Below, piece by piece: positions 4,185 through 61,670 of a stretch of DNA of 64,000 bases (the stretch's first letter is position 1; the number at the start of each line of letters is the position of its first letter). Where the stretch lies: positions 800,001-864,000 of the forward strand of contig CBDBHR010000029.1 in NCBI GenBank assembly GCA_965205865.1. Reading direction: 5' to 3'. The translations under genes were made by a program, and so were the position numbers. Under the pieces are notes generated by a model. That model saw only the letters and a list, made by a program, of their open reading frames with translations, ran no database searches and was not told the origin of the DNA. This DNA comes from a bacterium (GTDB lineage Bacteria; SAR324; NAC60-12).

Positions 4185-4434
4185 TAAATATGTTATGCTC
4201 CGCGAATGGATCTTATACCACAGTAGTACGAGTAAATCAAGGGTCTGCTGCCTGCCTCCAAATTTTTTTTACGTATGCAAATTATGTCTAAAGTTACGAT
4301 TCGCCACGACAATGTCCAAATGCTGGCCTGCACTGCAGAGTACAGACGGTAAGATAATGATGCCTTAACGCAAAGGTGGATGAGACCTGCACAAGCCAGC
4401 ATATAGTATATCTGTCTGCCATTAAACGAAATTT

Positions 4435-4647: not shown

Positions 4648-4656
4648 AATTCCTCC

Positions 4657-5517: not shown

Positions 5518-5558
5518 TTTAAAATGCTTGATTCAAATAAAATACATTGGAGAAAGAA

Positions 5559-5804
5559 TTAACGGAAGGGCGCTGAATACTGCAATCCTCCTTTAGTCCA
5601 AAGCGCATTGAGGCCGCGTTCCAGGCCAATCATGGTATTGGTTCCGAGATCATGCTCGAAGATTTCTCCACAATTGCCAACAGATTTGATGATATTATAC
5701 GCCTGGTCCGCACTCAATCCAAGTTGCTGGCCCTGACTGCCTTCCGTGCCAAGCAAGCGTTTGATTTTCGGGACATTTCCCTCTTGGTTTGGGTGTTGTC
5801 GCAA
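5559..5804 (-). pseudogene. 3' remnant of an AapJ/BztA-type amino-acid ABC substrate-binding protein
   Basis: PKIKRLLG...VGNCGEIFEHDLG...RGLNALWTKGGLQYSAPFR matches the AapJ C-terminus with degenerate substitutions. The N-terminal ~270 aa are absent. Confidence 0.8.
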
Positions 5805-6005
5805 TGACCCGGCGTCCTTAAAGGGCGCTAAATGCGCACCATCAAAGAGGAGAAAGAATTATATACCTTCATACGGAATGTTTGTCTGAATCTTTTGCTG
5901 AAAATTGTCTCAAATGTCCAAAGTCCGGGTCTTATCAACACAAAAAATTGGAAGTCGAATGATTTTCACAAAAAAACATACCGGGCATGGAAGATCGAGT
6001 TGGGG

Positions 6006-36117: not shown

Positions 36118-37617
36118 TCAAATTTTGAGATGGCCTCCAATGTAAGCCATCAATCCCCGGGCAGAGGTAAAACCAATCGGTTTCCCATCGTCCAGAACCG
36201 GAAGGTGGTGAGTTCCGGCAATCACCATTTGGTTGAAGGCAAAAGCAATGGAATCCTTTTGATCCACGCAAACCGGATTGGCGCGCATCAATTGAGAAAC
36301 GGGGAGGGTTTTCAAGTCCAAACCGCGACCGATGATTTTATCGACAACGTCCTCATCCGTAAAAATCCCAATCAGTTTGCCATCCTCATGTACGTGTACA
36401 CAGCCATAATTTTTTCCCAACATCAACTCAATTGCATGGGCCACACTGTCTGAAGGCGCCACCACCAACGCTTGTGGAGGCTCGAGGACGCTGATGGGTT
36501 CTTCCATGAGATCCTTTTGTCCTCCTTTGGGAATCTCCGGAAAAATATCGATATCCTGCAGCTCCGGATCATCGTCCAAATCCTGACCCACCTTGATTGC
36601 CGAGATTTCCCATACCTGACCGCTATAAAGCAATTGTCGCAAATCGCCGCGGCCTTTTTTCGCCACTTGGTCTTCCACTTTGAAGCTTAGTAAGTCTTCA
36701 TAGGTACCCCGCTCTTTTTGATACAAAATTCCCATGGGAACAGGAAAATCAGGATAATTCAATTGAGATAACAATTCTGCCTCCATAGCATTGCCGACAT
36801 CATGGACAATCAGGTCTTCTTCACTGATCCCATTACCCAAAGTGACTACCTCGGGTTTGAGCTGATCGAGTCGAATTCCCCTGTCTCGATTTTTACCAAA
36901 GACGAGGGGTTGTCCATCTTCAAGCTTCAGCATTCGCTCTTCGCGGACTGCGCGATTACTCATATATTCAAAGGCATTGTCGTTGAATATATTGCAATTT
37001 TGATAAATTTCCACAAACGACGCGCCTTTGTGGGCAGGTACGGCTTTGAGGATACTTTGCAACCCTTTGGGATCAACGTCGAGGCTGCGCGCCACAAAAG
37101 AAGCTCCGGAGGCCAAAGCCAATCGGGTGGGTTCCAAAGGAAAATCAACCGATCCGAAAGGAGTGCTTTTCGTTGTCTTTCCCAATTCGGAGGTGGGTGA
37201 ATATTGTCCTTTTGTCAAACCATAGATACGGTTATTGAAAAGCAAGATATTGACGTCGACATTACGGCGCAAGATATGGATAAGGTGATTGCCCCCAATG
37301 CTCAAACCATCGCCATCGCCGGTTACCACCCAAACAGAGAGATCCGGACGGCTCACTTTCAGCCCTGTCGCAAAAGCCGGCGCTCTTCCGTGGATGGTAT
37401 GAAATCCATAAGTGTTCATATAATAAGGAAAGCGACTGGAACAACCAATCCCGGAAATGAAAACGATTTTTTCTCGAGGTACTCCGATTTCCGGCATCAC
37501 CTTTTGGACATTTGCCAAAATGGAATAATCACCGCATCCCGGACACCAACGTACATTTTGATCAGAAACAAAATCTGCTTTGCTTAATTTTTTCATTTCC
37601 AGTGGTTGCGCACTCAT
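36118..37617 (-). CDS. korB: 2-oxoacid:ferredoxin oxidoreductase beta subunit fused to a C-terminal CBS pair
   Basis: WCPGCGD, GIGCS, GDGD, YGLTKGQ, then an acidic linker and two CBS repeats (GKLIGIFT...HHLPVLDDGKPIG). Confidence 0.93.
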   Translation of the reverse strand: MSAQPLEMKKLSKADFVSDQNVRWCPGCGDYSILANVQKVMPEIGVPREKIVFISGIGCSSRFPYYMNTYGFHTIHGRAPAFATGLKVSRPDLSVWVVTGDGDGLSIGGNHLIHILRRNVDVNILLFNNRIYGLTKGQYSPTSELGKTTKSTPFGSVDFPLEPTRLALASGASFVARSLDVDPKGLQSILKAVPAHKGASFVEIYQNCNIFNDNAFEYMSNRAVREERMLKLEDGQPLVFGKNRDRGIRLDQLKPEVVTLGNGISEEDLIVHDVGNAMEAELLSQLNYPDFPVPMGILYQKERGTYEDLLSFKVEDQVAKKGRGDLRQLLYSGQVWEISAIKVGQDLDDDPELQDIDIFPEIPKGGQKDLMEEPISVLEPPQALVVAPSDSVAHAIELMLGKNYGCVHVHEDGKLIGIFTDEDVVDKIIGRGLDLKTLPVSQLMRANPVCVDQKDSIAFAFNQMVIAGTHHLPVLDDGKPIGFTSARGLMAYIGGHLKI

Positions 37618-42606: not shown

Positions 42607-43563
42607 ATGAAACAGAATTTTTCGAAATTCCTCCCTCTTTTGATTTTGGGATTGATCTTTTTCTGGATTCCCACTCTTGCCATTGCGGAAGACCGGCAAA
42701 TCGCAGGGCAGCCTTGGTGGATCTGGCCCATCTTGCTCTTTGGGCTGACGTTTTTTATCGGAGTTGGTGGAGTAATGGCAGGAATTGGTGGGGGAGTCTT
42801 GTTCGTACCGTTTGTCAGCGGATTTTTCCCCTTTCACATTGATTTTGTGAGAGGAGCCGGATTGATGATTGCATTGGGCAGCTCCCTGGCTGCGGCTCCC
42901 AATTTGCTCAAAACAAACGTTGCCAGTCTCAAACTAGCTCTGCCTGCGGCATTGATTGCCTCCGGTTTTTCCATCATCGGCGCTCTCAGCGGCCTGTGGT
43001 TATCGCAGATCAATCCGGCATATATACAGATCAGTCTGGGAATTTTGATTTTCCTCATTGTTTTGCTCATGCTTTTTTCCAGTAATACGCTCTATCCGGA
43101 GGTCAAATCGGGAAATATTCTCACTGAAGCCCTGGGACTGAATGGTGTTTTTTATGAACCAACCCTGAATCGTCAAGTATCATGGAGCGTGCATCGAACA
43201 GCCAAGGGGTTAATGGCTTTCAGCCTGAGTGGCTTTCTGTCAGGTATGTTTGGATTAGGTGCAGGTTGGGCCAATGTTCCGATATTCAACCTGATCATGG
43301 GGGCTCCCTTAAAAATTTCAGTAGCCACCAGCAGCTTTGCCCTTTCCATCACCGACACCACGGCAATTTGGATTTACTTCAACCAAGGAGCGATTCTCCC
43401 CATTATCGTTATTCCCTCTCTGGCGGGTGTCATGATTGGTGGCAAAATCGGAGGACATTTGCTGCCCAAAGTCAATCCCACTCTGACACGAAAATTTGTG
43501 ATTGGCGTCTTAGCGCTGGCCGCCTTTTGCTCTTTGCTGAAAGGGATTTGGATTGTGATTTAA
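42607..43563 (+). CDS. TauE/SafE-family sulfite/sulfur-compound exporter
   Basis: Repeated GIGGGVLFVP and GLGAGWANVP motifs, ATS motif, many TMs. Confidence 0.9.
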   Translation: MKQNFSKFLPLLILGLIFFWIPTLAIAEDRQIAGQPWWIWPILLFGLTFFIGVGGVMAGIGGGVLFVPFVSGFFPFHIDFVRGAGLMIALGSSLAAAPNLLKTNVASLKLALPAALIASGFSIIGALSGLWLSQINPAYIQISLGILIFLIVLLMLFSSNTLYPEVKSGNILTEALGLNGVFYEPTLNRQVSWSVHRTAKGLMAFSLSGFLSGMFGLGAGWANVPIFNLIMGAPLKISVATSSFALSITDTTAIWIYFNQGAILPIIVIPSLAGVMIGGKIGGHLLPKVNPTLTRKFVIGVLALAAFCSLLKGIWIVI

Positions 43564-43615
43564 AACTTTATATTTGAAGATATGGTCTGATAATGTTATT
43601 ATAAATGGAAATCGT

Positions 43616-44029
43616 ATGAAATTGAAATATGAGAACCTGGAAATTCAACGTCGCTATGCGGAAGTGTTGAGACGGGTCTGTAATTTAGGTCTGGTCTTCC
43701 TTTTTCTCACCTTTGCGCTCTATGTACTCGGCATTGTCAAACCCCTGATACCCTTGGAATCAATGCCTCAGTATTGGAACCTGCCTCTGCAAGAATTCTT
43801 GCTGCAAACCGGCGCCCCCAGAGGTTGGGAATGGATCGAGCATATCGGAAAGGCCGATTATCTCACCTTCATCGGACTGATCATTCTTGCAGGCGTGACT
43901 GGAGTTTGTTACCTCTTATTACTGTTCTTTTTTGTTAAAACAAGGAAGCTATTGTATATTGTTTTGGTTAGTACGGAGTTTTTATTGATTGCTTTTGCTG
44001 CCTCCAACCTTTTCGAATTGGGACATTGA
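43616..44029 (+). CDS. DUF1634-like membrane partner of TauE
   Basis: Three TMs, P.GW.W...DYL.F.G pattern, located directly after TauE. Confidence 0.7.
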   Translation: MKLKYENLEIQRRYAEVLRRVCNLGLVFLFLTFALYVLGIVKPLIPLESMPQYWNLPLQEFLLQTGAPRGWEWIEHIGKADYLTFIGLIILAGVTGVCYLLLLFFFVKTRKLLYIVLVSTEFLLIAFAASNLFELGH

Positions 44030-44050: not shown

Positions 44051-45223
44051 ATGAGTGATGTAACCAGCATGAAAACCGCATTCAGAGAAGGGTATACGAC
44101 TTTATTTGGTCGGCAATGGCCCTATTGGGTGGCAGGTATTTTGCTTGGAGGGATCAATGTATTCATGTTTGCTTACGCACGTCCCTGGAGTTCGGCGGAT
44201 GGCATCAGAAATTGGGGAGATTGGTTTTATAAGACAATCGGAGCATCTGATCAAATCATCATCGATCCCCATCTTTACTCCACCTCCGTGCTCAACTTTG
44301 GTTTGATTGTCGGAAGCATGGCTGCTGCTTTGTTTGCCAGGCAGTTTGCTGTGCGGATCGCTCCTTTTCGTGAGCTTCTCAAAGGGTTAGTCGGAGGAAC
44401 TTTGATGGGAATTGGCTCCAGCCTTGCCTTTGGTTGCAACATCGGGGGATTTTTCAGCGCCACCAGCGCCTTGTCTCTATCAGGACCCACCATGATGCTG
44501 GGATTGCTCATGGGGGCGGTTATCGGACTAAAATTGCTCATTTGGGAAGTTGAATTCCTACCTGCTTCTACTGCCTCTCCTTCACGGCCTGCCTCTACAA
44601 AGCAGAGGCAGAGACAACCGGCAATAGCGGTCGTTCTTCTTCTTCTGGCCACGATCATAGTCTTCCTGTACGATGGCTTCGAGTATCAAGAGCGGGCAGG
44701 GTTGCTGTTTTTTGGTTTGCTGATCGGCATTGTTATGCAACGTTCCCAATTTTGTTTTGTACGCGCTTTTCGCGAGCCTTTTATGACAGGACAGGGTGAT
44801 GCTACCAAAGCAGTCGCCTTAGCTATCATCATAAGCGTCAGTGGTTTTAGTATTTTAAAATGGACAGATCTACGAGAATGGGATACAATGGTATCTTCCG
44901 GATTCTGGATTGGTAGTCTGATCGGAGGAATCGTTTTCGGAATCGGCATGTCCTTTGCGGGAGGGTGCGGTTCAAGCTGCATTTGGAGAGCAGGGGAAGG
45001 CCATGTGAAGTTGTGGCTGGCTCTGTTGACTTTTTCGTTGGTCGGCTCTTATTTCAGAGGATGGCTTGACGAGAGCGGCTGGCTGATGAAATTAGGAACC
45101 CAGGTATTTCTGCCTGACGTCATGGGTTGGAAACTGGCATATCTTACCATCATCGCCATCATGCTGCTTTGGTACTTGGTAGCAAGTTGGAATGAAATCA
45201 AGGGGAAACTGATCATTTCTTGA
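44051..45223 (+). CDS. YeeE/YedE (TsuA/SoxT-like) thiosulfate/sulfur transporter
   Basis: Conserved Cys motifs FGCNIG, RSQFCF and GGCGSSC; duplicated membrane halves. Confidence 0.9.
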   Translation: MSDVTSMKTAFREGYTTLFGRQWPYWVAGILLGGINVFMFAYARPWSSADGIRNWGDWFYKTIGASDQIIIDPHLYSTSVLNFGLIVGSMAAALFARQFAVRIAPFRELLKGLVGGTLMGIGSSLAFGCNIGGFFSATSALSLSGPTMMLGLLMGAVIGLKLLIWEVEFLPASTASPSRPASTKQRQRQPAIAVVLLLLATIIVFLYDGFEYQERAGLLFFGLLIGIVMQRSQFCFVRAFREPFMTGQGDATKAVALAIIISVSGFSILKWTDLREWDTMVSSGFWIGSLIGGIVFGIGMSFAGGCGSSCIWRAGEGHVKLWLALLTFSLVGSYFRGWLDESGWLMKLGTQVFLPDVMGWKLAYLTIIAIMLLWYLVASWNEIKGKLIIS

Positions 45224-45354
45224 GTCATGTCTTTGCTGTCTCTCTTTTGATCAGTAGAATTATTAAATGAAGCAGTTCTGGAACAAGTTGATCTGAGTCA
45301 ATCTCAAAAAGGGTGAATGTCGCTCTTGTCTTTCATCACTGGGAAAGGGAAAAT

Positions 45355-46674
45355 ATGAAAAAAAAATTCAGTCTATATTCAATCTTTTTAATCGTGCTCT
45401 TATGCTTTGCCGCAAACAGCGCGATGGCCGGTAAAAAATTTGGCGCTCCTACCGAAGGAATGACAAGTGCCGAGTATCAGAATTTGGTTTTCCTCGATCC
45501 TCAAAATACGGTCCGCATGGACTGGGATGCGGTGCGTAACCTGTCGGGGTATTTTTTCATAGACAATCAGGGAGAACCCACGGTTTCCGTCGTGGATTAC
45601 TTCCAAGAAAAAACGATCAAAAAAATCGATATGGGAGAGAATGGGAACCATCATATTTTTGTGATTCCAGGAGCTCGATACGTCTACTCTTCCCAGCGTT
45701 ATGAAAAAGATGTAATCTGGGTCATTGATCTGTTGACACTGGAGGTGGCCAAAAAAATCCATTTGAGCCGAGGTGGCAAACAAGTGATTGCCCCTCTGCA
45801 CATTGGCTTTGCTTACACCCAAGCGCTGGCTGTTACGGGAAATATTCTCGATAAAGAACATGGATATTTGACTTTCATAAACACTGCCACCCACGAAACA
45901 GATAGCATTGTGGAATTGACGTGCCATGGCGCTCGTGATGCCATGTTCACTCTGGACGATTCCAAAGTTTTTACGAGTTGTCAACAAGAGCCGAAAGGAA
46001 TGGCAGTTGTCGACGTTCAGAAAAGAAAACAGATCAAAATAGTACCTCTCAAGGGCAGTAGAACCGGAGCCATGACACCTGATGGTCAATATTATATCGT
46101 CGGAGCCTCCGGAGCATTTCATATTTTTGATACCGGTACCACTGAGTTGGTCAGATCTATCGAAGTGCCGGGCGGGGCTGGAAATGTGACCTGTCTCAAA
46201 GATAGTTCCAAATGCTATGGCGGTTTGAGAAAAGCAAAGGCTGTGGCAGTGTTGGATATGAAGAAGCTGGAGTTGATCAAAACAATCGAGACCGGTCCTG
46301 ATGCCAACAGGCTTTATTTAAACCCCGCCAATCCTCGTTATGGAATTTTTGCCAATGAAGGTGGTAAGTCCGATTTCGTCACTGTCATTGACACGGTGGC
46401 CGATGTTGCGATGAAAAACATCTACACAGGTCTGGGACCGCACAACGTAGCGTTCAATCCTGCAGGAACCCATGCGATTGTTTCCACCAAAAAAGAGCCG
46501 GTGGCCACCCTGATAGATACGTCATCAGCCAATCCTATGGATTGGGAGACTCTCACCACTGATATCGATTCAGGTATCCAAAACAATGGGGTCCGCTGGG
46601 TTCCCCATCCGGATGAGTTGAAACAATTGTTGGGAATGGTGGTGACGAAGGAACTTATCCTGGCGAGTAAATAA
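45355..46674 (+). CDS. Secreted YVTN/YncE-like beta-propeller protein
   Basis: Sec signal peptide; repeated V.VID....K.I..G blades. Confidence 0.85.
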   Translation: MKKKFSLYSIFLIVLLCFAANSAMAGKKFGAPTEGMTSAEYQNLVFLDPQNTVRMDWDAVRNLSGYFFIDNQGEPTVSVVDYFQEKTIKKIDMGENGNHHIFVIPGARYVYSSQRYEKDVIWVIDLLTLEVAKKIHLSRGGKQVIAPLHIGFAYTQALAVTGNILDKEHGYLTFINTATHETDSIVELTCHGARDAMFTLDDSKVFTSCQQEPKGMAVVDVQKRKQIKIVPLKGSRTGAMTPDGQYYIVGASGAFHIFDTGTTELVRSIEVPGGAGNVTCLKDSSKCYGGLRKAKAVAVLDMKKLELIKTIETGPDANRLYLNPANPRYGIFANEGGKSDFVTVIDTVADVAMKNIYTGLGPHNVAFNPAGTHAIVSTKKEPVATLIDTSSANPMDWETLTTDIDSGIQNNGVRWVPHPDELKQLLGMVVTKELILASK

Positions 46675-46768: not shown

Positions 46769-47248
46769 ATGAAATCAGAAAATGTCATCACAAGAAGAAA
46801 ATTCTTGCAGTACGCGGCCATTGGAGGAATGGCAGTCCCGGTATTTTCCAACTTGGTAATGCCCAATGCGGTACAAGGGGCTGTGACTCGTGAAATTTTC
46901 CGTTTCCCTCGAGATCTGAAGAATCTGACTGATGCGCAGCGCATGCATCTTCCCAAGGTCACTATGCCTCCCGTCGTTGAAGATGGCAGTCAGGCGCCGA
47001 TTGTGGTGGAAATGGATCATCCGATGGACCCGGACCACTATATCAGGAGTATCCAAATAGTCAGTTTTAATGATCCTGTCGTGAATAAGGGGCAGTTTTA
47101 CTTCACTCCCGCCAATGGTGAAGTTTACCTGGGCACCCAAATTCGCTTGGATGGTGGTGAGAGTACCGTATGGGTCATTGCCGAGTGTAACCAGGACGGT
47201 CTGTTTGCAATCAGTAGATCCGTCAAGGTGGCTGCCGGGGGATGCTAG
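46769..47248 (+). CDS. soxY: Tat-exported SoxY-like sulfur carrier with desulfoferrodoxin/SOR-type motifs (divergent)
   Basis: Tat motif TRRKFLQ, P.VVEDG...P, C-terminal VKVAAGGC; also HLP, HPM...HYI and CNQDG. GGAGG RBS. Confidence 0.75.
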   Translation: MKSENVITRRKFLQYAAIGGMAVPVFSNLVMPNAVQGAVTREIFRFPRDLKNLTDAQRMHLPKVTMPPVVEDGSQAPIVVEMDHPMDPDHYIRSIQIVSFNDPVVNKGQFYFTPANGEVYLGTQIRLDGGESTVWVIAECNQDGLFAISRSVKVAAGGC

Positions 47249-48885
47249 TGATGTGGAGAAGAATTGCCTCGATACTGGTCAAGATAACCAACCTTTTGAT
47301 CCTGTTCCTTTTCACATTCACGGGAAACTCTCCGCAAGCCTCCGAGATTGAGGGTTCCCACCCGATCGATCAGAAAAAAACGTGGGAGGAAATTCGGATT
47401 ATCTCGACCAATGATATCCACTATTACTTACACCCACTCTACTATCGATATATCGATGAAGTTCGACCTTGGGGAGCTCAATCCAGGGACGGGAATTATA
47501 TTGCAAAAGCAAGACTCGAGGGGAAAATTGGGGGGATGGCCCATGTGGCCACGGTGATCGAGAGGCTTCGCGGCGAAAAACCTGGAAAATCACTGGTTGT
47601 GGATGCCGGAGATACCTGGCATGGCTCTGCATTTTCGCTCGTGGACCGGGGTGAATCGATGGTCAGGATCTTGAATACTATCGGCTATGACGTGATGGCG
47701 CTCGGCAATTGGGATTTTTACTATGAGGAAGAGCAGTTTCTGAATTTAGTGGAACAAGCCCGATTCCCGGTACTGGCTTACAATCTCGTTGACAAAGAAT
47801 GGGAAGAGCCGGTCCTGGAGCAATTTACAATCAAGCAGGTAGGAAAACTGAAAGTCGCGATCGTGGGGATGACCTATCCCTGGACTGCCCTTACATCTGC
47901 AATTACAGGTGCTGCTCGATCGTACAAATTCGGAATCAGGGAAAATGAAGCTCAACTCTTGATCCGGCAAATCAGGGAGGAAGAAGATCCGGATCTCGTG
48001 ATATTTGTCTCTCATGGCGGCTATGGTCTGGATCAAAAGTTTGCGAAACGAGTGGATGGTATTGATGTTATAGTTAGCAGTCATACGCATGATGAAATTT
48101 TTCAACCCCTTGTCTGGAACGATACGATAATTTATCAAGCAGGCGCTCATGGAAAATATGTGGCCAAACTGGATCTCTGGGTCAAAGACAAGAAAGTGGT
48201 CGACTTCGATTATCAGTTGATCAAGATCAATAAAAAACGCATCCCAGCCCATCCTGAAGTCGCTCAAATCATTGAGGAAGCCTACCGTCCCCACAAAAAA
48301 AAACTGGAAGAGATCGTTGGAATATCCAAAAGCATGCTTTACCGGCGAGATTTTTGGCAAAGTACGCTGGGAAATCTGATCACCACCGCATTGCAGGATT
48401 CTGCCAAAACCGATATCGCTTTTTTCCCTGCCTGGAGGTTCGGCGCCACGCTGCTTCCGGGTAAAATCACTGTCGGAGACGTTTACAATATGGTACCCAC
48501 CCATGGACGGATCATCACTTATTCCATGCAGGGAGAGCAAATCAAAATGCTGCTGGAAAATATTCTGGGAAGTTTCACGGATGCGGATCCTTATGCTCGC
48601 GTGGGAGGGGATATGATCCGCTTTTCAGGTCTCAAAATCCGCTACGATTTGAACAGGAGAGTGAGAGATCGCATTGTTTCGCTGCGGATCGGAGACCAAC
48701 CTGTTGATTTAAATAAGTCCTACAGCATTGCATCCGTGCATACCCGTTTTCAAAACAATCCCCTCTTCGGGGCAACGAATATCAAAGATACCGGCAAAAT
48801 ATTTGTTGAGGAACTTATCCAATACATCCGAGAACACTCACCCCTCGTCTCTGAACTCGATGATAGGATAATGCCAGTTCAATGA
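47242..48885 (+). CDS. soxB: SoxB-like thiohydrolase (5'-nucleotidase/metallophosphoesterase family), divergent
   Basis: NDIH, DAGD.WHG, GNWDF, SHGG, SHTHD, plus SoxB-type GKIGG, LYRR, WRFG and GGDMIR segments; lies between SoxY-like and SoxZ-like genes. Confidence 0.75.
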   Translation: MLVMWRRIASILVKITNLLILFLFTFTGNSPQASEIEGSHPIDQKKTWEEIRIISTNDIHYYLHPLYYRYIDEVRPWGAQSRDGNYIAKARLEGKIGGMAHVATVIERLRGEKPGKSLVVDAGDTWHGSAFSLVDRGESMVRILNTIGYDVMALGNWDFYYEEEQFLNLVEQARFPVLAYNLVDKEWEEPVLEQFTIKQVGKLKVAIVGMTYPWTALTSAITGAARSYKFGIRENEAQLLIRQIREEEDPDLVIFVSHGGYGLDQKFAKRVDGIDVIVSSHTHDEIFQPLVWNDTIIYQAGAHGKYVAKLDLWVKDKKVVDFDYQLIKINKKRIPAHPEVAQIIEEAYRPHKKKLEEIVGISKSMLYRRDFWQSTLGNLITTALQDSAKTDIAFFPAWRFGATLLPGKITVGDVYNMVPTHGRIITYSMQGEQIKMLLENILGSFTDADPYARVGGDMIRFSGLKIRYDLNRRVRDRIVSLRIGDQPVDLNKSYSIASVHTRFQNNPLFGATNIKDTGKIFVEELIQYIREHSPLVSELDDRIMPVQ

Positions 48886-48933: not shown

Positions 48934-49284
48934 ATGGCTGAAAAAATCGCCCCCCCCCGCCTCCGTTTGCCGAGACGGATCAAGAAAGATCAAGTATTCA
49001 AAGTGAAGGTTAAATTCGACCACCCTTCGTTCACCGGGTTAGGACGGGTGGATGAGAAAACCCTGCCTCGTTTCAATCGGGCGGTACCAACTTCGTTCAT
49101 CCGCACAATGCTGGTTTACTATGGAGATGAGTTGGTCAACCGTTTCGCCATGAGTTCCGCGATTGCTGACTTTCCCCTCTTTACCTTCAAATTAAAAGCA
49201 ACCAAGGAAGCACCCGTCAAGGTGGTTTTTATCAACAATCATGGAGAACGTTGGGAAGTCTCCAAAGATGTAAAGCCCCGTTAA
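48934..49284 (+). CDS. soxZ: SoxZ-like carrier partner (no signal peptide)
   Basis: VKVKFDHP..TG...SAIADFPLFTFK...NNHG; size typical of SoxZ. Confidence 0.75.
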   Translation: MAEKIAPPRLRLPRRIKKDQVFKVKVKFDHPSFTGLGRVDEKTLPRFNRAVPTSFIRTMLVYYGDELVNRFAMSSAIADFPLFTFKLKATKEAPVKVVFINNHGERWEVSKDVKPR

Positions 49285-49330: not shown

Positions 49331-50041
49331 ATGAATAATAGATTTACCACCTTGCTCCTCTTTTCCTTCATGGCAGGTTTGATTTTGAATACAATTGCTC
49401 AGCATTCAGTGGCCAATGCCGAGAAAGCTCAATTTGAAATCGAGGGATTGATTTCTCCTGTCAGTCCAAAAGCTCTGACCAAAGGGCTGCTGGACAAGCT
49501 GAGGGTGAAGGTGACTGACCTGAATTTGAAAAACACGCCGAGTGGTTGGCCAGTATTGACCGTCGAATTTGATGCCGCTACTGTCAGCAAAGAAGCAATT
49601 GAATCCGCCATTGCCTCAATCGAAGATCCGGCAGGTCACCATTTTCAAGTGCGCAAAGGACCTCCACGGGTGGAAGCCCCTTTGCTCAAGGAAGAAATGG
49701 ACGCCATAGCTGTCATCCCCGCATCTGTTCCTCAGATCCCATCTCTGGAAAATCCCATTCCACGCACCAGTGAATCGGAGGCACTCGGCCAAACGCTGTA
49801 TCGAAGAAACTGTGCCAAATGCCACGGCTTGGATGGAGGGGGACAAGGCCCCAGTGCGCATGGATTCCTCAGCAATCCCCGAAAACTTTATGTCTGGTTC
49901 AATACCGACTCCTCGACGGATGGTTATTTGTTTTGGTATATAACCCAAGGGCGCAACGACATGCCTCCCTGGGGACTGGTGCTCTCGGAAGAGGAGCGCT
50001 GGCATCTGGTCAACTACGTCAAATCCATGAAACAACCTTAG
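49331..50041 (+). CDS. Periplasmic monoheme cytochrome c with an N-terminal Cys-less HMA-like domain
   Basis: Signal peptide, FEIEGLISPVS, CAKCH, distal Met in NDMPPW. Confidence 0.85.
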   Translation: MNNRFTTLLLFSFMAGLILNTIAQHSVANAEKAQFEIEGLISPVSPKALTKGLLDKLRVKVTDLNLKNTPSGWPVLTVEFDAATVSKEAIESAIASIEDPAGHHFQVRKGPPRVEAPLLKEEMDAIAVIPASVPQIPSLENPIPRTSESEALGQTLYRRNCAKCHGLDGGGQGPSAHGFLSNPRKLYVWFNTDSSTDGYLFWYITQGRNDMPPWGLVLSEEERWHLVNYVKSMKQP

Positions 50042-50090: not shown

Positions 50091-50513
50091 ATGGAGATCG
50101 CTCGGGATATCGTGACCCAATCTTTTCACGATATGAAATTTGAAGAACTCCTTGAAGATTTGGTCAAAGAAATCGAGTTGCGTAATTATCGCATCACTCG
50201 TGTTTATAACATTGACAATATCAAAGAGCGTAAAGAATTACTGCAAGATTTCCAGGTGGAATTCGAGCATTACAAGATCGTGGAATTTTGCAATTTGACC
50301 AAATGCGCAACTTTGATTTCTTCCCATCTTTTAGTAGGCGTTTTCATGCCGCTGAAATTCGTTGTCTATCAGGAAGTCACGCAAAGCCAAGTGGAGGTTG
50401 CGTTTTTAAAACCAACTGCCTTTGCCAAGATTTTTGACTCTGCCTCTCTCACTGAGATAGCCGCAGTGTTGGAGAAAGATATGCGCTATGTACTGGAAGA
50501 AATCGATTTTTAA
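50091..50513 (+). CDS. DUF302 domain protein
   Basis: YKIVEFCN...GVFMPLK.VVY...LKP. Confidence 0.8.
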   Translation: MEIARDIVTQSFHDMKFEELLEDLVKEIELRNYRITRVYNIDNIKERKELLQDFQVEFEHYKIVEFCNLTKCATLISSHLLVGVFMPLKFVVYQEVTQSQVEVAFLKPTAFAKIFDSASLTEIAAVLEKDMRYVLEEIDF

Positions 50514-51075
50514 AATACATCTGCTGACGGGGCTTGTTTTCCTGATGATGGGGGCTTTTTGTTATACCATGGCTCAGGATTCAAAACCAAAACCCGGGGG
50601 CGATTTCACCCTGCAATCGCTACGCGGCCCCGTGTCGCTCCATGATTTTCAAGGCAAAGTGGTTTTGCTGTTTTTTGGATACACGAGTTGTCCTTCAATG
50701 TGTCCGCTTTCCCTATCGACCATGGAAAGTACTTTCTCCAAAATGCCACCGGAGACCTTGCAGAAAATACAAGCCCTTTTTATCAGCTTGGATCCGGAAG
50801 AGGACACTTTGACGAAGTTGAAACAATACACAGAATTTTTTCATCCAAATATTCTTGGTGTGACCGACCAGCCAGAAAGTATCGCTCGGGTTGCGCAACA
50901 ATATGGGGTGGTTTATGAGAGAGAATTATTGAGCCATTCAGCCCTGGGATATATCATCAATCACACAGCTGATATCTTCCTGGTCGATCCTCAAGGAAAA
51001 TTACAAGAATCGGTGGCCCATGATTCTCCCCCTCAACTGCTTCGCGAGTCTATCCATCGACTTCTTTCCCGATAA
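50488..51075 (+). CDS. SCO-family copper chaperone
   Basis: FFGYTSCPSMCP (CxxxC), SLDPEED, YIINH. Confidence 0.93.
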   Translation: MYWKKSIFKIHLLTGLVFLMMGAFCYTMAQDSKPKPGGDFTLQSLRGPVSLHDFQGKVVLLFFGYTSCPSMCPLSLSTMESTFSKMPPETLQKIQALFISLDPEEDTLTKLKQYTEFFHPNILGVTDQPESIARVAQQYGVVYERELLSHSALGYIINHTADIFLVDPQGKLQESVAHDSPPQLLRESIHRLLSR

Positions 51076-51119: not shown

Positions 51120-52697
51120 ATGGCTCTGTTGCGAACCTGCTTATTTTTTCCGGCAATCTGGATTGCCTTGATCATCTCTGCCCACGCTTTCGAACATGAG
51201 CATTCTCCCGTTCAATTTTTGGAATACCACCCCACCATCATTGACAATCAAAAATTCCGGAAAAAACCTTTTTATCTGCTCTTCTCAGCGCAATGGTGTC
51301 ATTGGTGTAAGATCTTTGCCAACAAGACATTGATGGATCCCAACGTACACGCCTTTCTCAATGAGAATTTTGTCAATATCTTCATTGATGCCGATATCCA
51401 CCCGACCGTTTTTAAAAAATTCAAGGCAACAGGCTGGCCCTACACAGTTTTTTTGAATCCCGATACTAGTGTTCACTATCAGTACGCGGGTACCGTTTAT
51501 CCCAAAGATTTCGTTAAAGTACTGTATGAAGTCAAGCAAAATGTAGACGAAGGACGGACGATCCCCGGGTTTGAAACGATTGCTTATGAATATGATCCTC
51601 CCAAAGAATTGGAAAAGGAAAGAATGCAGTCGTTCCAGGAATTGTTTCAGCAAACGATTTTGGAGAATTTTGACCTGAGCGAAGGAGGGATCGGCAAAAA
51701 AGAAAAAGCCATTTTTCCCGGAACCCTTCTCTATCTGTTGGACACGGCCAATGCGGAAGACCGGGCTGAGGTCATCGAGTCGATCCACCTGACTTTGAAG
51801 AAAGCAATCCTGCGCATCTATGATCCCATTGAAGGAGGATTTTTCCGCTATGCGGAGAAACGGGAGTGGCAAATCCCACATTATGAAAAAATGGCGGATT
51901 TGAATGCGGGAAATATTTTGCTTCTTTACAAAATGGCGCGCGAGACTAAAGATGCCGAATTGAAGAAAATCGCAGACCAAACGCTGAAATATCTGGTCAC
52001 GACTCTCTTTGATTCAAAGACCGGTATCTTTTTGAGCTTCCAAGAAGCCGACACGCATTACTATTTCTTTGATGCCAAGCAACGAAAAACCATGCAAGCT
52101 CCCTTCGTGATTCAAAAGGTCTTTGTCAACCGTGTGGCTCCTACGCTCGACTATCTGATCGATGTCCTTGAATATTCTGATGGATTTGCTCTTGAACATA
52201 AAATAAAACAATCTCTTGATTTGCTGGCATCGATGATCCGGCAAAATGATCGACTCTCCCACTATTACTCGGTGACCCGGAACAAATGGATGGGTGAAAG
52301 CCGGCTGGCGAATTATGCGTACTTGGCATATTTATTCCAGAAAGCCGCCACTCGTTTTGAAAATCCCCATTTTGAGGAAACGGCATTGATAGTTTTGCAA
52401 TCAACCAAGAACCAGTTTTTTGACCGAGACCTGCGTATTTTTGCTGATAGTCTTTCCCTGCATTGGGGAGATATTGAATATCACATGGAAATGAACGGTT
52501 TCCTGGCGCAAATGCTCTTGCATACCAAAAAAGTGAGCAACAGCAGAGCGGCTGAAGGGCTGCTGACCTATTTTCTCGCCATGGATGAATATCTCGAAGA
52601 ACAAGCCTGGGATGCTCGTGAATGGGAATTTCTGGAACGCTATGTTCCTTATCTGAAAGCGCTCGGACTGCGCAATGAAAAAGCAAAAAACCGATGA
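51120..52697 (+). CDS. Secreted thioredoxin (DUF255) + alpha/alpha-barrel protein (YyaL/SPATA20-like)
   Basis: Signal peptide, WCHWC, GWP.TVFL, GGFFRY...W.IPHYEKM. Confidence 0.8.
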   Translation: MALLRTCLFFPAIWIALIISAHAFEHEHSPVQFLEYHPTIIDNQKFRKKPFYLLFSAQWCHWCKIFANKTLMDPNVHAFLNENFVNIFIDADIHPTVFKKFKATGWPYTVFLNPDTSVHYQYAGTVYPKDFVKVLYEVKQNVDEGRTIPGFETIAYEYDPPKELEKERMQSFQELFQQTILENFDLSEGGIGKKEKAIFPGTLLYLLDTANAEDRAEVIESIHLTLKKAILRIYDPIEGGFFRYAEKREWQIPHYEKMADLNAGNILLLYKMARETKDAELKKIADQTLKYLVTTLFDSKTGIFLSFQEADTHYYFFDAKQRKTMQAPFVIQKVFVNRVAPTLDYLIDVLEYSDGFALEHKIKQSLDLLASMIRQNDRLSHYYSVTRNKWMGESRLANYAYLAYLFQKAATRFENPHFEETALIVLQSTKNQFFDRDLRIFADSLSLHWGDIEYHMEMNGFLAQMLLHTKKVSNSRAAEGLLTYFLAMDEYLEEQAWDAREWEFLERYVPYLKALGLRNEKAKNR

Positions 52698-52990: not shown

Positions 52991-53845
52991 ATGAAATATG
53001 TAGCACCAAAATCAGTCGAGGAGGCACTTGCTCTACTTGGTACGGAACCAGACTATTGTGTGTTCGCCGGAGCAACTGATATTGTCCCACAGATGCGAGC
53101 GGGACGACCCGAACCGAAACTGATGGTTAATCTGAAGAGCATCCCGGACTTGATTGGTATGGAATGCGAAAATGGCGCATGGACCGTAGGGGCCGCTACG
53201 CCAGTGGCCTCTATCCATGGAAGCGCGGACTTTCAGGCGGATTTCCCGGGGATTGCTGAATCCAGTGGACTGATCGGTTCCGATCAGATCCAAAACAGGG
53301 CTAGTTGGGGAGGTAATGTTTGCAATGCGTCTCCGGGAGCAGACACCGTACCGGCTTTAATCGTCAATGACGCGCAAGCCGTGATTGCAACCAATGGAGG
53401 CACTCGCGCGATACCCGTGTCCGAGGTGGCCACTGGCCCGGGGCAGACGTCGCTGGCATCAGGTGAGTTTGTCGTCGAATTTAAAATTGAACGCCCGTCT
53501 CCGCGCACCTCTGATGCCTATGAGCGGTTTATTCCCCGCACGGAGATGGATATCGCAGTCGTTGATGCGGCAGCGAGGATTACGCTGGATGAGAATGATC
53601 ATTGCAAAGAGGCAACAATCGCTGTTGGTGCGGCAGCCCCCACTATCGTTCGAGTACCAGCGGCTGAGGATGCGCTGCGGGGTCAGCCTATCAACGATCA
53701 GACATTGGCCGCCGTCGGTGCCGCCGCCAGTGCCGCATGTAGCCCAATCAATGATAAACGAGGTACCATTGAATATCGTACTCAGGTCGCTGGGGTTCTA
53801 GCGAAACGGGTTGTCAAATTAGCAGCGGAACGTGCACGCAAATGA
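52991..53845 (+). CDS. Xanthine-dehydrogenase-family FAD subunit (CoxM-like)
   Basis: AGATD, QIQNRASWGGNVCNASP, D.RG..EYR. Confidence 0.92.
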   Translation: MKYVAPKSVEEALALLGTEPDYCVFAGATDIVPQMRAGRPEPKLMVNLKSIPDLIGMECENGAWTVGAATPVASIHGSADFQADFPGIAESSGLIGSDQIQNRASWGGNVCNASPGADTVPALIVNDAQAVIATNGGTRAIPVSEVATGPGQTSLASGEFVVEFKIERPSPRTSDAYERFIPRTEMDIAVVDAAARITLDENDHCKEATIAVGAAAPTIVRVPAAEDALRGQPINDQTLAAVGAAASAACSPINDKRGTIEYRTQVAGVLAKRVVKLAAERARK

Positions 53846-53855
53846 GGAGAATAGT

Positions 53856-54332
53856 ATGAATCGAACACATGTAGTATGTAATATTAATGGCGACGAGGTC
53901 GAGTTTCTTTGTGATGACGATGAATCATTGCTCGATGCGTTGCGCGACGAAGTTGGACTAACAGGGGCAAAGGAAGGCTGCGGTACCGGAGACTGTGGCG
54001 CTTGTTCAATAATTTTCGATGGCCTCTTGATTTGTTCATGCCTGGCATTTGCTCCCGAAGCAAATGGCGCGCACATTGAAACAGTCGAAGGAATGGCCGA
54101 CGGGGAGACGCTCCATCCCTTGCAAACAGCTTTTCTCGAAGGAGCCGCTCTGCAATGTGGGGTTTGTACTCCGGGATTTCTCGTTGCTGCCAAAGCATTG
54201 CTCGAGCGCAATTCCGATCCCACGGAAACCGAAATTCGTTATGCCCTGGCTGGCAATCTTTGCCGTTGTACCGGATATGACAAAATCGTGCGCTCGGTGA
54301 TTGATGCCGCCGCACAAATGAATAACGCATAA
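53856..54332 (+). CDS. Xanthine-dehydrogenase-family 2x[2Fe-2S] subunit (CoxS-like)
   Basis: GCGTGDCGAC, QCGVCTPG, NLCRCTGY. Confidence 0.95.
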   Translation: MNRTHVVCNINGDEVEFLCDDDESLLDALRDEVGLTGAKEGCGTGDCGACSIIFDGLLICSCLAFAPEANGAHIETVEGMADGETLHPLQTAFLEGAALQCGVCTPGFLVAAKALLERNSDPTETEIRYALAGNLCRCTGYDKIVRSVIDAAAQMNNA

Positions 54333-54349
54333 AGGAAAGGGGAAATATT

Positions 54350-56602
54350 ATGACAATTGCTAATGAAACTTCTGAAACCAAAACCCCCTATAAATGGATC
54401 GGAACCCGACCCGTACGACACGATGGGTTGGAAAAAGTGACCGGTCGTGCCCGCTTTGCCGCGGATATGATCATGCCCAGGATGATCCATGGTCACGTCT
54501 TACGCTCCCCTCATGCCCATGCGCGTATTCTTTCCATCGATACGACGGAAGCGGAAGCCATGGCCGGAGTGAGAGCCATCGTCACAGGCAAGGATTTTCC
54601 GGATCCGAATCCCTCGGACAACGTTTCACGCAATTTGATGGCACGCGACAAGGTGCGCTATGAAGGGCAGGTAGTGGCCGCCGTGGCTGCCAATACTCGT
54701 CGTCAGGCCAAAGCGGCTGCCGAGAAGATCGCGATTGAATACGAAGTACTGGGTCATGTAATAACCGTCGATGAAGCCATGGCCGATGACGCGCCTTTGC
54801 TCCACGAAAACTTGATAACCAAGGGTGTCGACCCGGTTCCCACCAAACCCTCTAACATTGCCAACCGGTCTCACTACGAGCGTGGTGACCTCGAAGCTGG
54901 TTTTGCAGAGGCAGACGTGGTGTATGAGCACGAGTTTACCACCAAGGTTGTTCATCAAGGCTATATTGAACCACACGCCGCCGTTGCCGATACCGGCACA
55001 GACGGTCGCTCGACCATTTGGTGCTCCTCTCAGGGACATTTTCGGGTCCGTTCCCAGACCGCGAAAATGTTAGGTTGGGAAACTTCCCAAATCAAAGTGA
55101 TCCCGGCCGAGATTGGAGGAGGATTTGGTGGCAAAACCACCATATATCTCGAACCACTGGCAGTGAGGCTCTCTGAGCTTGCGAAGCGGCCGGTAAAAAT
55201 CGTCATGAGTCGTGATGAAGTCTTTCGAGCAACCGGACCCACCCCCGGTACGCGGGTTAAGGTCAAACTTGGAGCTCGTAAGGACGGCACGCTTGTGGCG
55301 GGTAAAGCCTGGCTCGCATATGAGAGTGGGGCCTTCCCTGGAATTTGGGGAATGCTGGGCGCCTGGTGTGTCTTTGCGCCTTACAAAATCCCCAACTTTA
55401 AAATCGAAGCCTTTGAGGTAGTGGTCAATAAACCCGTCAATGTCGCCTATCGAGCTCCGTCAGCGCCTATGGCTGCCTTTGCTACGGAGACCGTTCTTGA
55501 CCAGATCGCTTGCGAGATAAAAATGGATCCAATCGATTTGCGATTGCTCAATGCGGCGGAGGAAGGCCATCAGAGGCCGGAAGGGCCGATATACGGACCG
55601 ATAGGGCTCAAGGCAACCTTGGAAGCCATTCGCGACCATCCCCATTACAAAGCGCCGTTGGCTCCCAATCAAGGACGTGGGGTCGCGACCGGGTTTTGGT
55701 TCAACATCGCGGAATCTTCAAGCGCGACGGTTAATCTTACCGAAAATGGCACTGCAGTCGTGGTCACCGGTAGTCCGGATATTGGCGGCAGTCGCGCTTC
55801 AATGGCACTCTTTGCCGCCGAAGAGCTCGGCATCGACGTCAAACTGATTCAACCCGTCGTGGGCGATACCGAATCCGTTGGCTTCACTGATGTTACCGAG
55901 GGAAGTCGCGCCACTTTCGCCACAGGATGGGCGGTAGTGGAAGCCTGTCGTAAACTCGTTGTTCAACTGCGGGAACGAGCGGCTATCATGTGGGACTGCA
56001 ATGTCGATGAGGTTGAATGGATCGATGGCAGTGCCTACCATACTGGCAAAAATGAGCCACCGCTCTCACTGGCAGAGATCACTGGCGCAGCGAAACAGAC
56101 CGGAGGTCCGCTCACGGCAACGGGTTCTCTCGAGGCCAAAGGCCAAGGTCCGGCCTTTTCCTCTCATATCTGTGACCTTGAAGTCGATCCTGAAACAGGA
56201 AGGGTCACCATTGTGAGATACACCACGGCTCAGGATGCCGGCACGGCCATTCATCCCAGTTATGTGGAAGGACAAATGCAAGGAGGAGTGGCGCAGGCCA
56301 TTGGCTGGGCGCTCAATGAGGAATATATCCATGACGACAAAGGAGTTATGGAAAACCCGAGTTTTCTGGATTATCGTATTCCTGTTGCTTCGGATCTTCC
56401 CATGATCGAAACGATCATTGTCGAAGTACCCAATCCCAATCATCCTTATGGGGTGCGAGGAGTTGGTGAGGTGGGCATTGTGCCTCCTATTCCTGCGATT
56501 GCAAACGCCATCTCTGATGCGGTTGGAGTACGTTTGCGCGATCTTCCCATGTCTCCGGTCGCGCTTCTCGATGCATTGAACAAACACAACGGCGCTGGCT
56601 GA
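54350..56602 (+). CDS. Xanthine-dehydrogenase-family molybdopterin subunit (not form I CODH)
   Basis: RSPHAHA, GGGFGGK, AYRAP, EGQMQGG, RGVGE. Confidence 0.93.
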   Translation: MTIANETSETKTPYKWIGTRPVRHDGLEKVTGRARFAADMIMPRMIHGHVLRSPHAHARILSIDTTEAEAMAGVRAIVTGKDFPDPNPSDNVSRNLMARDKVRYEGQVVAAVAANTRRQAKAAAEKIAIEYEVLGHVITVDEAMADDAPLLHENLITKGVDPVPTKPSNIANRSHYERGDLEAGFAEADVVYEHEFTTKVVHQGYIEPHAAVADTGTDGRSTIWCSSQGHFRVRSQTAKMLGWETSQIKVIPAEIGGGFGGKTTIYLEPLAVRLSELAKRPVKIVMSRDEVFRATGPTPGTRVKVKLGARKDGTLVAGKAWLAYESGAFPGIWGMLGAWCVFAPYKIPNFKIEAFEVVVNKPVNVAYRAPSAPMAAFATETVLDQIACEIKMDPIDLRLLNAAEEGHQRPEGPIYGPIGLKATLEAIRDHPHYKAPLAPNQGRGVATGFWFNIAESSSATVNLTENGTAVVVTGSPDIGGSRASMALFAAEELGIDVKLIQPVVGDTESVGFTDVTEGSRATFATGWAVVEACRKLVVQLRERAAIMWDCNVDEVEWIDGSAYHTGKNEPPLSLAEITGAAKQTGGPLTATGSLEAKGQGPAFSSHICDLEVDPETGRVTIVRYTTAQDAGTAIHPSYVEGQMQGGVAQAIGWALNEEYIHDDKGVMENPSFLDYRIPVASDLPMIETIIVEVPNPNHPYGVRGVGEVGIVPPIPAIANAISDAVGVRLRDLPMSPVALLDALNKHNGAG

Positions 56603-56847
56603 TGGTTCGAGTCATTCTTGCATCAAATCTGCAAAGCTTCACCGATGGGGTTGAAGTAGTCGAAGTGCAAGCCTCTTCGGTGAAGTCACTTGTAAAAGAA
56701 CTCGACCGGCGCTACCCTGGTATCGCCAATGCGCTCAAATCCGGCTTTGCTGTCGCCATCAACGGCGAAGTCGTCGCCCACCCCACCTATGAACGGATCC
56801 CTGAAGGTGCGGAAGTTCACGTCCTTTCTGCAATCCAGGGGGGGTAG
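56602..56847 (+). CDS. MoaD/ThiS ubiquitin-like sulfur carrier
   Basis: Beta-grasp pattern AVAINGE and C-terminal IQGG. Confidence 0.88.
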   Translation: MVRVILASNLQSFTDGVEVVEVQASSVKSLVKELDRRYPGIANALKSGFAVAINGEVVAHPTYERIPEGAEVHVLSAIQGG

Positions 56848-57961: not shown

Positions 57962-58201
57962 TCAGTTCTTTTGAATGAAAAAGACATGCGCGTTTCCTTC
58001 CACCTCCGTTTTGAGAATTGAATTCCCGGTACGAGTACTCCAGGTTCTCATGTCACTGATGAAGCCCGGATCCGTCGAAGCCATTTTCAGCACTTGTCCG
58101 GGGGATAACTTGGACAACGCCTTTTTTGTTTGCAGCGCGGGCATCGGACAAGTGAGATTTCGGCAATCCAAATACTGATCAAAGTTCATATCTTGCCGCA
58201 T
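57962..58201 (-). CDS. tusA: TusA-family sulfurtransferase
   Basis: LDCRNLTCPMP...TDPG..SD. Confidence 0.92.
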   Translation of the reverse strand: MRQDMNFDQYLDCRNLTCPMPALQTKKALSKLSPGQVLKMASTDPGFISDMRTWSTRTGNSILKTEVEGNAHVFFIQKN

Positions 58202-58250
58202 TGACTTTTCTCCTTGCCAAATGGCATTTTACGTTGCTGATTGTTTTTTT

Positions 58251-58970
58251 TCAAAGATCGGTATGTAGCCCGCATTCTGTTTTTTCACACTGATTCCACC
58301 GGTCCTCTCTTCCATTGATTCCCACACCCTTTGTGCAGGGAACACATCCCAGGCTTTGATCTTTTCCTGAAATATGGAGAGGATGGACAGGGATTCGCTT
58401 TTTTTTCATATAAGTAAAAACTTCGTCGGAAGTCCAATCCAGGAAGGGATGGAGTTTATATATTTCCTTTTTTGTCAAGATGGCACGCGCAAAGCTGCTT
58501 CTCTGATGGGTCTGACTTTTGCGCACCGCGGAAATCCACGCCCGAACGCCATACTGGTTGATATAGTCTTCCAGTGGTTGAACTTTATTCATGGCACAGC
58601 ACAAATCGGGATTGGACAAGTACAATCTCCCATGTTTTTTTAAAAAATCCTCTTTTGTGAGTTTTGGCAATGCTTCCACGAAATCCAGTTTCCTATAATT
58701 TGCTTTCAAGGTCTCGAAGTAATCCAGGGTTTCCTGAAACAAGAAACCGGTGTTGACAAAAACGACGCGGATGGGCAATTCGAGTTCGGACAAAAAATGA
58801 ACCAGCACTCCTGAGCTGATACCGCAGGAGGTCGTAGCGATTAATTTGTCACCGAAAATATCATAGGCTTCCCGAATGAGCCGCGCCGTATCCAGGTGAT
58901 TGAGTTTGCGCAATACAGCCTGTATTTGCGTAAAGTGCTCGCCAATCGGCATTTGATTCGACATGTTCAT
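58251..58970 (-). CDS. cysH: APS/PAPS reductase (4Fe-4S type)
   Basis: NTGFLFQET, DLCC, SLGCVPCT, KTECGLH. Confidence 0.92.
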   Translation of the reverse strand: MNMSNQMPIGEHFTQIQAVLRKLNHLDTARLIREAYDIFGDKLIATTSCGISSGVLVHFLSELELPIRVVFVNTGFLFQETLDYFETLKANYRKLDFVEALPKLTKEDFLKKHGRLYLSNPDLCCAMNKVQPLEDYINQYGVRAWISAVRKSQTHQRSSFARAILTKKEIYKLHPFLDWTSDEVFTYMKKKRIPVHPLHISGKDQSLGCVPCTKGVGINGREDRWNQCEKTECGLHTDL

Positions 58971-58986
58971 GACTTCCATTTTGGCT

Positions 58987-61140: not shown

Positions 61141-61199
61141 GTTTACCTTTTGAAAAATTCCTTTCTCCCAGACCTCTCCAGTTGTGGGAGCTTTTATAA

Positions 61200-61655
61200 T
61201 TAAATATAATAAATGAAACCCTGGTTGTTCCGAGAACTCACTTTGGCTTCCCGTCTCAGAATATCCTGCATACTGATAGTGTCTAAAACCCTGGCTATTG
61301 CTTCCTGAACTTCGGCCCATACTCCAAAAAAATGAAGGCGACCTTCTCCCACGGATTGCAAATGAGTCAGGGGATCCGAATGTTCCGGAGAGAACCAGCG
61401 TTTATCAACCAAGCGAATGATATCCCCCAAAAAAATTTCATCCGGTGGCTTTGCCAGAGCATAACCCCCACTTGGCCCTTTTCTGCTTTCCACATATCCT
61501 GCTTTTTTCAACTGTAACATGATTTGTTCGAGATACTTGTTCGGGATATCTTGAGCTTTGGAAAGATCCGAGACCCGTACCAGTTTGTTGTTGTAATAAT
61601 GCGATAGCTCCAAAACTGCGCGCAGCGCATAATTACATCGGGTTGAGCGCTTCAT
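61200..61655 (-). CDS. Rrf2-family regulator lacking the three-Cys Fe-S motif (CymR-like)
   Basis: STRCNYALRA, YLEQI, SRKGPSGGY; first gene of the sir-cysH-tusA unit. Confidence 0.9.
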   Translation of the reverse strand: MKRSTRCNYALRAVLELSHYYNNKLVRVSDLSKAQDIPNKYLEQIMLQLKKAGYVESRKGPSGGYALAKPPDEIFLGDIIRLVDKRWFSPEHSDPLTHLQSVGEGRLHFFGVWAEVQEAIARVLDTISMQDILRREAKVSSRNNQGFIYYI

Positions 61656-61670
61656 ATGCACTCCTTCATT

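Follow-up and report, generated by a model that had tools for sequence, protein, structure and literature searches.

A SoxY-type sulfur carrier with a superoxide reductase-type ligand set, encoded in a gene cassette of SAR324 and other bacteria

The window, that is, the whole stretch of 64,000 nucleotides analyzed here, comes from a SAR324 genome (G000) that is 91.9% complete. Its forward strand carries a cassette whose genes encode, in this order, a YeeE-type transporter, a beta-propeller protein, a sulfur carrier, a SoxB-like enzyme, SoxZ, a cytochrome c, a DUF302 protein, an SCO1 protein and a thioredoxin-like protein. The YeeE/YedE-type sulfur transporter (44051 to 45223; PF04143, E value of 4e-53) is followed by a secreted eight-bladed beta-propeller (45313 to 46674), which modeling, conservation and complex prediction point to as a candidate arm-loading enzyme, and by the carrier (46769 to 47248; 159 amino acids), a SoxY-type protein with a putative metal site derived from superoxide reductases (SORs). 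The SoxB-like thiosulfohydrolase (47242 to 48885) scored 406 bits against TIGR04486, below the cut-off of 550; its best PDB match was SoxB (E value of 3e-60), and it retains the Trp of SHWE and the Arg of AVRW. The SoxZ-like partner (48934 to 49284) exceeds the PF08770 cut-off, lacks a signal peptide, and occurs as a fusion with the carrier in more distant homologues.

The remaining cassette genes encode a cytochrome c with a single heme and an additional N-terminal domain (49331 to 50041; PF13442), whose CxxCH motif and Met211 are invariant in 24 of 24 sequences; a DUF302 protein (50091 to 50513), with two Cys residues kept in 21 of 22; an SCO1/SenC copper-chaperone family protein (50488 to 51075; PF02630, E value of 1e-37), the sole SCO match of the genome, with CxxxC and His159 in 21 of 21; and a thioredoxin-like CxxC/DUF255 protein (51120 to 52697), with C60 and C63 also in 21 of 21. 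A TauE/SafE exporter and a small membrane protein (42607 to 44029, forward strand) lie upstream of the cassette in just two of 35 loci, this one and L001. Contigs from RNA libraries (X17 and X19) span cassette genes, although contigs cannot show transcription.

Several further features of the window were recorded. Its SoxZ has HPSFTG where the canonical SoxZ of locus L032 has HPMETG; His30 is invariant in 25 of 25 sequences, and the protein gives a weak Desulfoferrodox score. The N-terminal domain of the cytochrome (49331 to 49660) is conserved and shows a weak match to the copper-binding model TIGR00003, without the Cys pair. A molybdenum hydroxylase cluster, CoxMSL-like by reading, occupies positions 52991 to 56847, and a second copy of the hydroxylase large subunit, 76% identical, lies on contig C27. 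On the reverse strand, positions 36118 to 37617 encode a 2-oxoacid:ferredoxin oxidoreductase beta-like subunit with an apparent C-terminal fusion to a CBS-like pair, adjoined by a separate CBS protein (names read from the sequence).

All the motifs that a preliminary description had listed for the carrier were recovered in the 159-residue open reading frame. The Tat signal peptide (residues 1 to ∼37; 46769 to 46879; inferred cleavage site) contains TRRKFL and scored 20.5 bits against TIGR01409 (cut-off, 16.7), and RRxFL is present in 114 to 116 of 120 aligned homologues. His60, in RMHLP (46946 to 46948), aligns with the first His of solved SORs. Alignment likewise placed His84 and His90 in the HPxxxxH loop (HPMDPDHYI; 47018 to 47038) and Cys140-x-x-Asp143 in AECNQDG (47186 to 47197), where the family has CxxH. 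The C-terminal arm, VKVAAGGC (47222 to 47245), ends in Cys159, the last residue, and matches the arm of the SoxY 4uwq_B in the alignment. We infer that the carrier is exported by the Tat pathway, with Cys159 as the putative sulfur-bearing residue.

Profile comparison bore out the assignment to both the SoxY and the Desulfoferrodox families. The protein exceeded the gathering cut-off of Pfam SoxY (PF13501; 65.7 versus 28.4 bits) and, over that same stretch, that of Desulfoferrodox (PF01880; 31.8 versus 22.2 bits), each of which finds this gene alone in the genome. It stayed below the strict models of both families, namely, TIGR04488 for SoxY (60.5 versus 125 bits), its terminus being GGC without GGCGG, and TIGR00332 for SOR (17.1 versus 61.9 bits). 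Among solved structures, the best phmmer match was the SoxY 4uwq_B (E value of 2e-6), with SORs next, and H60, H84, H90, C140 and D143 corresponded one to one to the H, H, H, C and H of the SORs 4brj, 4bk8 and 4brv. The available text of the SORGOdb paper gives centre II as four His and one Cys and includes a Tat-exported class, TAT-SOR (PMC3116461). The window protein has three His, the Cys and Asp143 instead; as for SoxY, it has the Tat signal and a soxZ gene 1.7 kb downstream. At the level of sequence, the presence of a SOR-type ligand set on a SoxY-type sulfur carrier is confirmed.

The ligand set was then compared across 120 aligned near homologues, a set that includes the window protein and excludes its 99% identical twin, P0002. 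His60 is kept in 119 of them, His84 and Cys140 in all 120, and His90 in 113 (the rest having Asp or Asn), while at position 143 there are 117 His and 3 Asp; the GGC terminus is present in 119. Conservation to this degree makes a chance resemblance untenable. All five SOR ligands (four His plus Cys) occur together in 109 of the 120, the others being four Asp90, three Asn90 and three Asp143 variants and one truncated sequence. Mean conservation reaches 98% in the ligand columns versus 80% in the core. A Glu three positions before His60 (position 57) is found in 106 of 120, and the GxW following CxxH is kept too. Of 150 distant representatives, 31 also have the complete set, many of the remaining rows being fragments or ordinary SoxYs; it is found in SoxY-SoxZ fusion proteins as well. 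Since the full set extends over near and distant homologues, fusions included, a complete SOR site is the rule in this family. Thus, the expectation that CxxD would alternate with CxxH among homologues was realized (3 Asp versus 117 His), and the proposed site of three His, Cys and Asp holds for the window protein but not for the family, in which it occurs rarely and locally (3 of 120).

Two observations were made at the edges of this family. P0222, a Tat protein of 396 amino acids, has three tandem SOR-like repeats with His, HxM and CxxH ligands and lacks a GGC arm. Among the SoxY-like representatives P0175 to P0271, many metal-free SoxYs retain a loop of the form xPMxxxxYV, in some cases together with the His of HPM, and a few of them give a Desulfoferrodox score; this loop is a relic of its SOR counterpart.

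Asp143 is a genuine lineage-specific swap. Its codon, GAC (47195 to 47197), is unchanged in contigs from runs X3 and X7, which belong to two different studies, and the 99% identical database protein has it as well, ruling out a sequencing or assembly error. The closest relatives, at 88 to 89% identity, carry His143. In a tree of 118 rows, all 10 ligand variants fall within one clade of 23 rows (SH 87) and are explained by three changes in total, two of them at position 143. Repeated independent selection for Asp is accordingly a weak proposal, with so few changes.

The window protein departs from the family norm at Q57, D143 and F146 together, which could be decay. The site might then be functional in the family and decaying or dead in the window lineage, on the way to a metal-free SoxY through E57Q, H143D and W146F. 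The confinement of the variants to one clade, the occurrence of Q57 in 8 of the 10 variants versus 4 of 108 other rows, and the distant protein P0130, which has lost two His, are in keeping with such a course. However, within the near family the replacements are Asp or Asn only and never affect both positions, H60, H84 and C140 stay, and His143 in the closest relatives requires that Asp was gained twice or else reverted; we regard decay as improbable. The tree is compatible with decay and also with retuning, in which a carboxylate is lost at 57 and one is gained at 90 or 143, the events being too few to separate them. In either case, natural variants of the SOR site with three His, Cys and Asp are available for comparison.

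The relationship between the two families was approached through columns scored against SOR and SoxY sets. The SOR-like columns of the carrier family are residues 44 to 67, the ligands and residues 140 to 146, and the family is SoxY-like elsewhere; the stretch ahead of His60 corresponds to that of Tat-exported SORs (hhalign probability, 98.4). A quick tree of 73 rows and 100 columns, with ligand and arm columns removed, the root not fixed and the SoxY rows partly picked by similarity to the carrier family, separated SORs (SH 99) from metal-free SoxYs (SH 98) and placed the carrier family between them. That tree nests SoxY within the family, but monophyly of the family is not rejected (p-AU of 0.575, with the constrained tree 3.1 lnL higher), and for this reason only the position between the two is claimed. 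The carrier had been described as a SOR/SoxY chimera. Both signatures are indeed on one protein, but a spliced or crossover chimera is ruled out, as the SOR-like residues are interspersed in a single domain on a SoxY scaffold. These data offer sequence-level evidence for kinship of SoxY and superoxide reductase.

The cassette order is repeated in 34 genome loci from SAR324, Gammaproteobacteria, Binatia and others (by title). Counts for single genes are lower bounds among 35 loci, window included, because contig ends and shadow open reading frames cause misses: at least 30 loci contain the propeller, 29 SoxB, 28 YeeE, 25 the cytochrome, 24 the thioredoxin-like protein, 23 SoxZ, and 22 each DUF302 and SCO1. 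Two divergent, reordered cassettes keep the core without SCO1, and the core persists at 34% propeller identity. A second type of context is seen at L045:158-4852, where a carrier-SoxZ fusion protein that has every His and Cys ligand is preceded by DsbA and SCO1 genes and followed by a multicopper oxidase. A metagenome scan with one fused protein returned four loci, one of them useful.

As the preliminary description had it, SoxAX is missing: the genome gave no SoxA or SoxX match. Searches of it gave no SoxC, DsrA, AprA, DsrC, DsrE2 or LipS match either, so that no known sulfane sink came to light, a point against the explanation favored below. SoxA exceeds the cut-off in 7 of 34 carriers of the cassette, each with its own canonical soxY beside soxA (within 10 kb of the cassette in 5 of the 7), and 27 of 34 are without SoxA. 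DsrA is found in 24 of 34 carriers, 17 of these without SoxA, and dsr genes lie directly upstream of the cassette in L002, L016, L026 and L028. In a survey of 88 genomes of the phylum, the 15 with the propeller were also the 15 with the best carrier matches, and none had SoxA; the zero overlap with the 9 SoxA genomes is not significant, as ∼1.5 would be expected and kin are not independent.

Some neighboring genes concern sulfur metabolism. In L118 (positions 1274 to 6201), LipS2-, LipS1-, lipoate-ligase- and GcvH-like genes and a DsrE gene adjoin a reordered cassette, which suggests a link with lipoate-dependent sulfur oxidation. In the window, on the reverse strand at 57965 to 61661, 5 to 9 kb past the cassette, a TusA-like gene (tblastn, 37%) adjoins CysH-like, sulfite-reductase-like and Rrf2-like open reading frames (read from the sequence, with one weak DsrA-model match), and this group is a possible assimilatory sink for imported sulfur. 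An sHdr set upstream of L019, suspected from CCG matches, was dropped, as the reading frames, judged by eye, looked ETF-like.

The coexistence of the cassette with soxA and a separate, canonical soxY in 7 of 34 carriers leaves room for the cassette acting on a substrate of its own instead of standing in for Sox. Accordingly, the cassette might capture sulfur from polythionate, polysulfide or organosulfur compounds, or serve assimilation, with the SOR-type site perhaps passing metal to the propeller. Such a role would suit a genome without rDsr and with the TusA group downstream, a hydrolase under the SoxB cut-off, and the fused form in L045, with its redox neighbors and no SoxB seen on a 5-kb contig. 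But the frequent presence of DsrA, mostly without SoxA, and a hydrolase whose best solved relative is SoxB argue against it, and we hold this possibility to be quite improbable.

The position of the site was examined in a structural model of the carrier. In this model, of pLDDT 67 only, H60 precedes the first strand, H84 and H90 are in the loop joining strands 75-82 and 92-99, and C140 and D143 are in the hairpin preceding the 12-residue last strand, 144-155; these loop positions fit a SOR site. Foldseek searches with the model returned SORs at ranks 1 to 4 (E values of 6e-6 to 9e-6), followed by SoxY, and the top VIA row was 6gq8 (Z of 9.4, rmsd of 3.0, 98 aligned), on a par with SoxZ and Ig domains. 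By the Ig topology, the ligand-bearing loops would be at one end, and the C terminus would exit at the other. Strand 144-155 would span ∼36 to 40 Å, while a four-residue arm would reach at most ∼15 to 20 Å by our estimate. The putative metal site probably lies, then, at the end opposite the Cys159 arm, and not near it as had been proposed.

The propeller model is of high quality (pLDDT, 92.5), with eight blades according to its best structural matches (NirF/cd1 types, Z of 30 to 33). H113, H114, H163, H377, R208 and D209 do not vary in relatives down to 34% identity. Searches against solved structures found no close relative; the protein scored 61.6 bits against L-NosZ (cut-off, 700), and entries named thiocyanate dehydrogenase (TcDH) gave E values of 0.07 or worse. 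Identity as TcDH or NosZ is not established by these weak profile matches, given four invariant His and eight-bladed best folds. The invariant His recall the His135-His136-His206 pattern of TcDH, as given in the portion of that paper available (PMC6504805).

A complex of propeller, carrier, SoxZ and Fe(II) was predicted with a score of 0.81, versus 0.00 for the best of three controls, and replacing the carrier abolished the score; the mark used was reached by 116 of 157 solved pairs and 2 of 215 mismatched pairs, custom alignments and a riding ligand placing the present runs outside that calibration. The runs share at least 87% of contacts, with a partner pLDDT of at least 91. The predicted carrier contacts are T65 to V69, D72, Q75, P77, V79 and Q124, with no metal ligand among them, and those of the propeller are sequence neighbors of its invariant His and Asn residues; arm residues 155 to 159 are not among the confident contacts. 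The contact face would be the arm end of SoxYZ, set against the His-lined face of the propeller. The prediction supports binding of the propeller to SoxYZ but does not show it.

These models bear on the proposal that the carrier is its own redox partner, which would help explain the missing SoxAX. The metal center would oxidize the arm of its own chain, or that of a neighbor across an oligomer, making SoxAX unnecessary; the absence of SoxA and SoxX and the SOR-type one-electron center on the carrier chain invite this idea. However, the C140/D143 hairpin and the 12-residue strand that carries the arm away make intrachain oxidation of Cys159 implausible, the estimated arm reach falls far short of the ligands, coupling takes two electrons, and a dedicated, conserved propeller is predicted to dock at the arm end instead. 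Self-oxidation is thus very improbable, and the propeller is, according to the models, a better candidate for the missing step.

What the distal site does is a separate matter. It could hold a structural or regulatory Fe or Zn inherited from a SOR-like ancestor and transfer no electrons, with roles in folding, Tat quality control or redox gating, the carrier and the propeller otherwise acting as proposed below. Its location outside the predicted propeller interface, the metal-free SoxYs that work on the same fold, many with the relic loop, and the His-to-Asp/Asn swaps tolerated in 10 of 120 homologues would all agree with that. But the Glu before His60 and the GxW after CxxH have been kept, for which a purely structural site has no obvious use; in SORs, these residues serve an open redox site. 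A purely structural or regulatory metal therefore seems unlikely, if by no means far-fetched.

The explanation that accounts best for the observations together, with a chance that we put slightly short of even, is a SoxAX-independent cassette in which the propeller loads the arm and the distal site is a separate one-electron center. The carrier would be exported through Tat and take SoxZ, which has no signal peptide, along with it. Thiosulfate or a related anion would be loaded oxidatively onto Cys159 by the propeller, which may be a copper enzyme supplied by SCO1, and the electrons would pass to the cassette cytochrome c. In the Sox system, according to the available text of two sources, the coupling of thiosulfate to the arm is the work of SoxAX, and SoxB then cleaves off the sulfonate (PMC5336275 and PMC13500833); by analogy with SoxAX, the propeller is the protein that most likely would do the coupling. 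The two divergent carriers G050 and G035 (84 and 88% complete) gave no SCO1 match, which weakens the case for copper. The SoxB-like enzyme would then remove sulfate, and the leftover sulfane sulfur would be taken in by YeeE for rDsr or some other sink in the cytoplasm. The SOR-derived site would bind one metal, most likely iron, and, without oxidizing its own arm, would exchange electrons with cytochrome c, either buffering electrons or reducing periplasmic superoxide. In the window lineage, it would have been retuned to three His, Cys and Asp.

Literature searches, mainly of open papers, returned nothing linking SoxY to a SOR site, although an earlier remark on the likeness of the two folds is possible, and, in main texts, no description of the cassette; the word metal does not occur in the available part of a study of SoxY diversity (PMC11237559). 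According to the accessible text of Boeuf et al., deep SAR324 possess no more of Sox than SoxYZ and SoxB, an "incomplete Sox" (PMC8364033). Surveys of incomplete Sox are silent on how the carrier is loaded, and the cassette offers a candidate enzyme, the propeller, next to a carrier with a predicted spectroscopically visible center. A broader reading, which we consider possible but rather doubtful, is that the family is a surviving SOR-SoxY intermediate with a working iron center and the cassette a second, SoxAX-independent entry for thiosulfate, loaded by the propeller. If true, it would explain SoxYZ and SoxB standing alone in deep-water SAR324.

Compared with known systems, the carrier shares with SoxY (PF13501, TIGR04488; 2ox5, 2oxg, 4uwq and 2nnc) the Tat signal, the Ig-like fold, the GGC arm, scaffold residues (68 to 83 and 108 to 139) and SoxZ and SoxB-like partners, but it keeps the SOR ligand set, and its arm is AAGGC rather than TIGGCGG. 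With SOR centre II of the Tat-exported class, it has in common the His residues, the HPxxxxH loop, the CxxH spacing, Tat export, the best Foldseek matches and the lead-in DPxNxTxLE[KR]xH; it differs from SORs in a scaffold that groups with SoxY (SH 99), in the sulfur arm, in its sulfur-cassette context and, in the window copy, in the Asp that replaces the fourth His and the Gln that replaces Glu. Unlike the Sox system, the cassette has soxB between soxY and soxZ and no SoxAX. Truncated Sox (SoxXA-YZ-B) with rDsr or sHdr, as presented in the available text (PMC13500833), has the carrier, the sulfate-releasing hydrolase, the absence of SoxCD and the dsr link in common with it, whereas the cassette lacks SoxAX and has the propeller, cytochrome c, SCO1, DUF302, the thioredoxin-like protein and YeeE as fixed members. 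Finally, the cassette propeller resembles those of thiocyanate dehydrogenase and N2O reductase in its periplasmic site, its adjacent His-His pair, a further His and its cytochrome c partner, but it has eight blades according to its best structural matches, only four invariant His and weak sequence similarity, while those copper propellers are seven-bladed.
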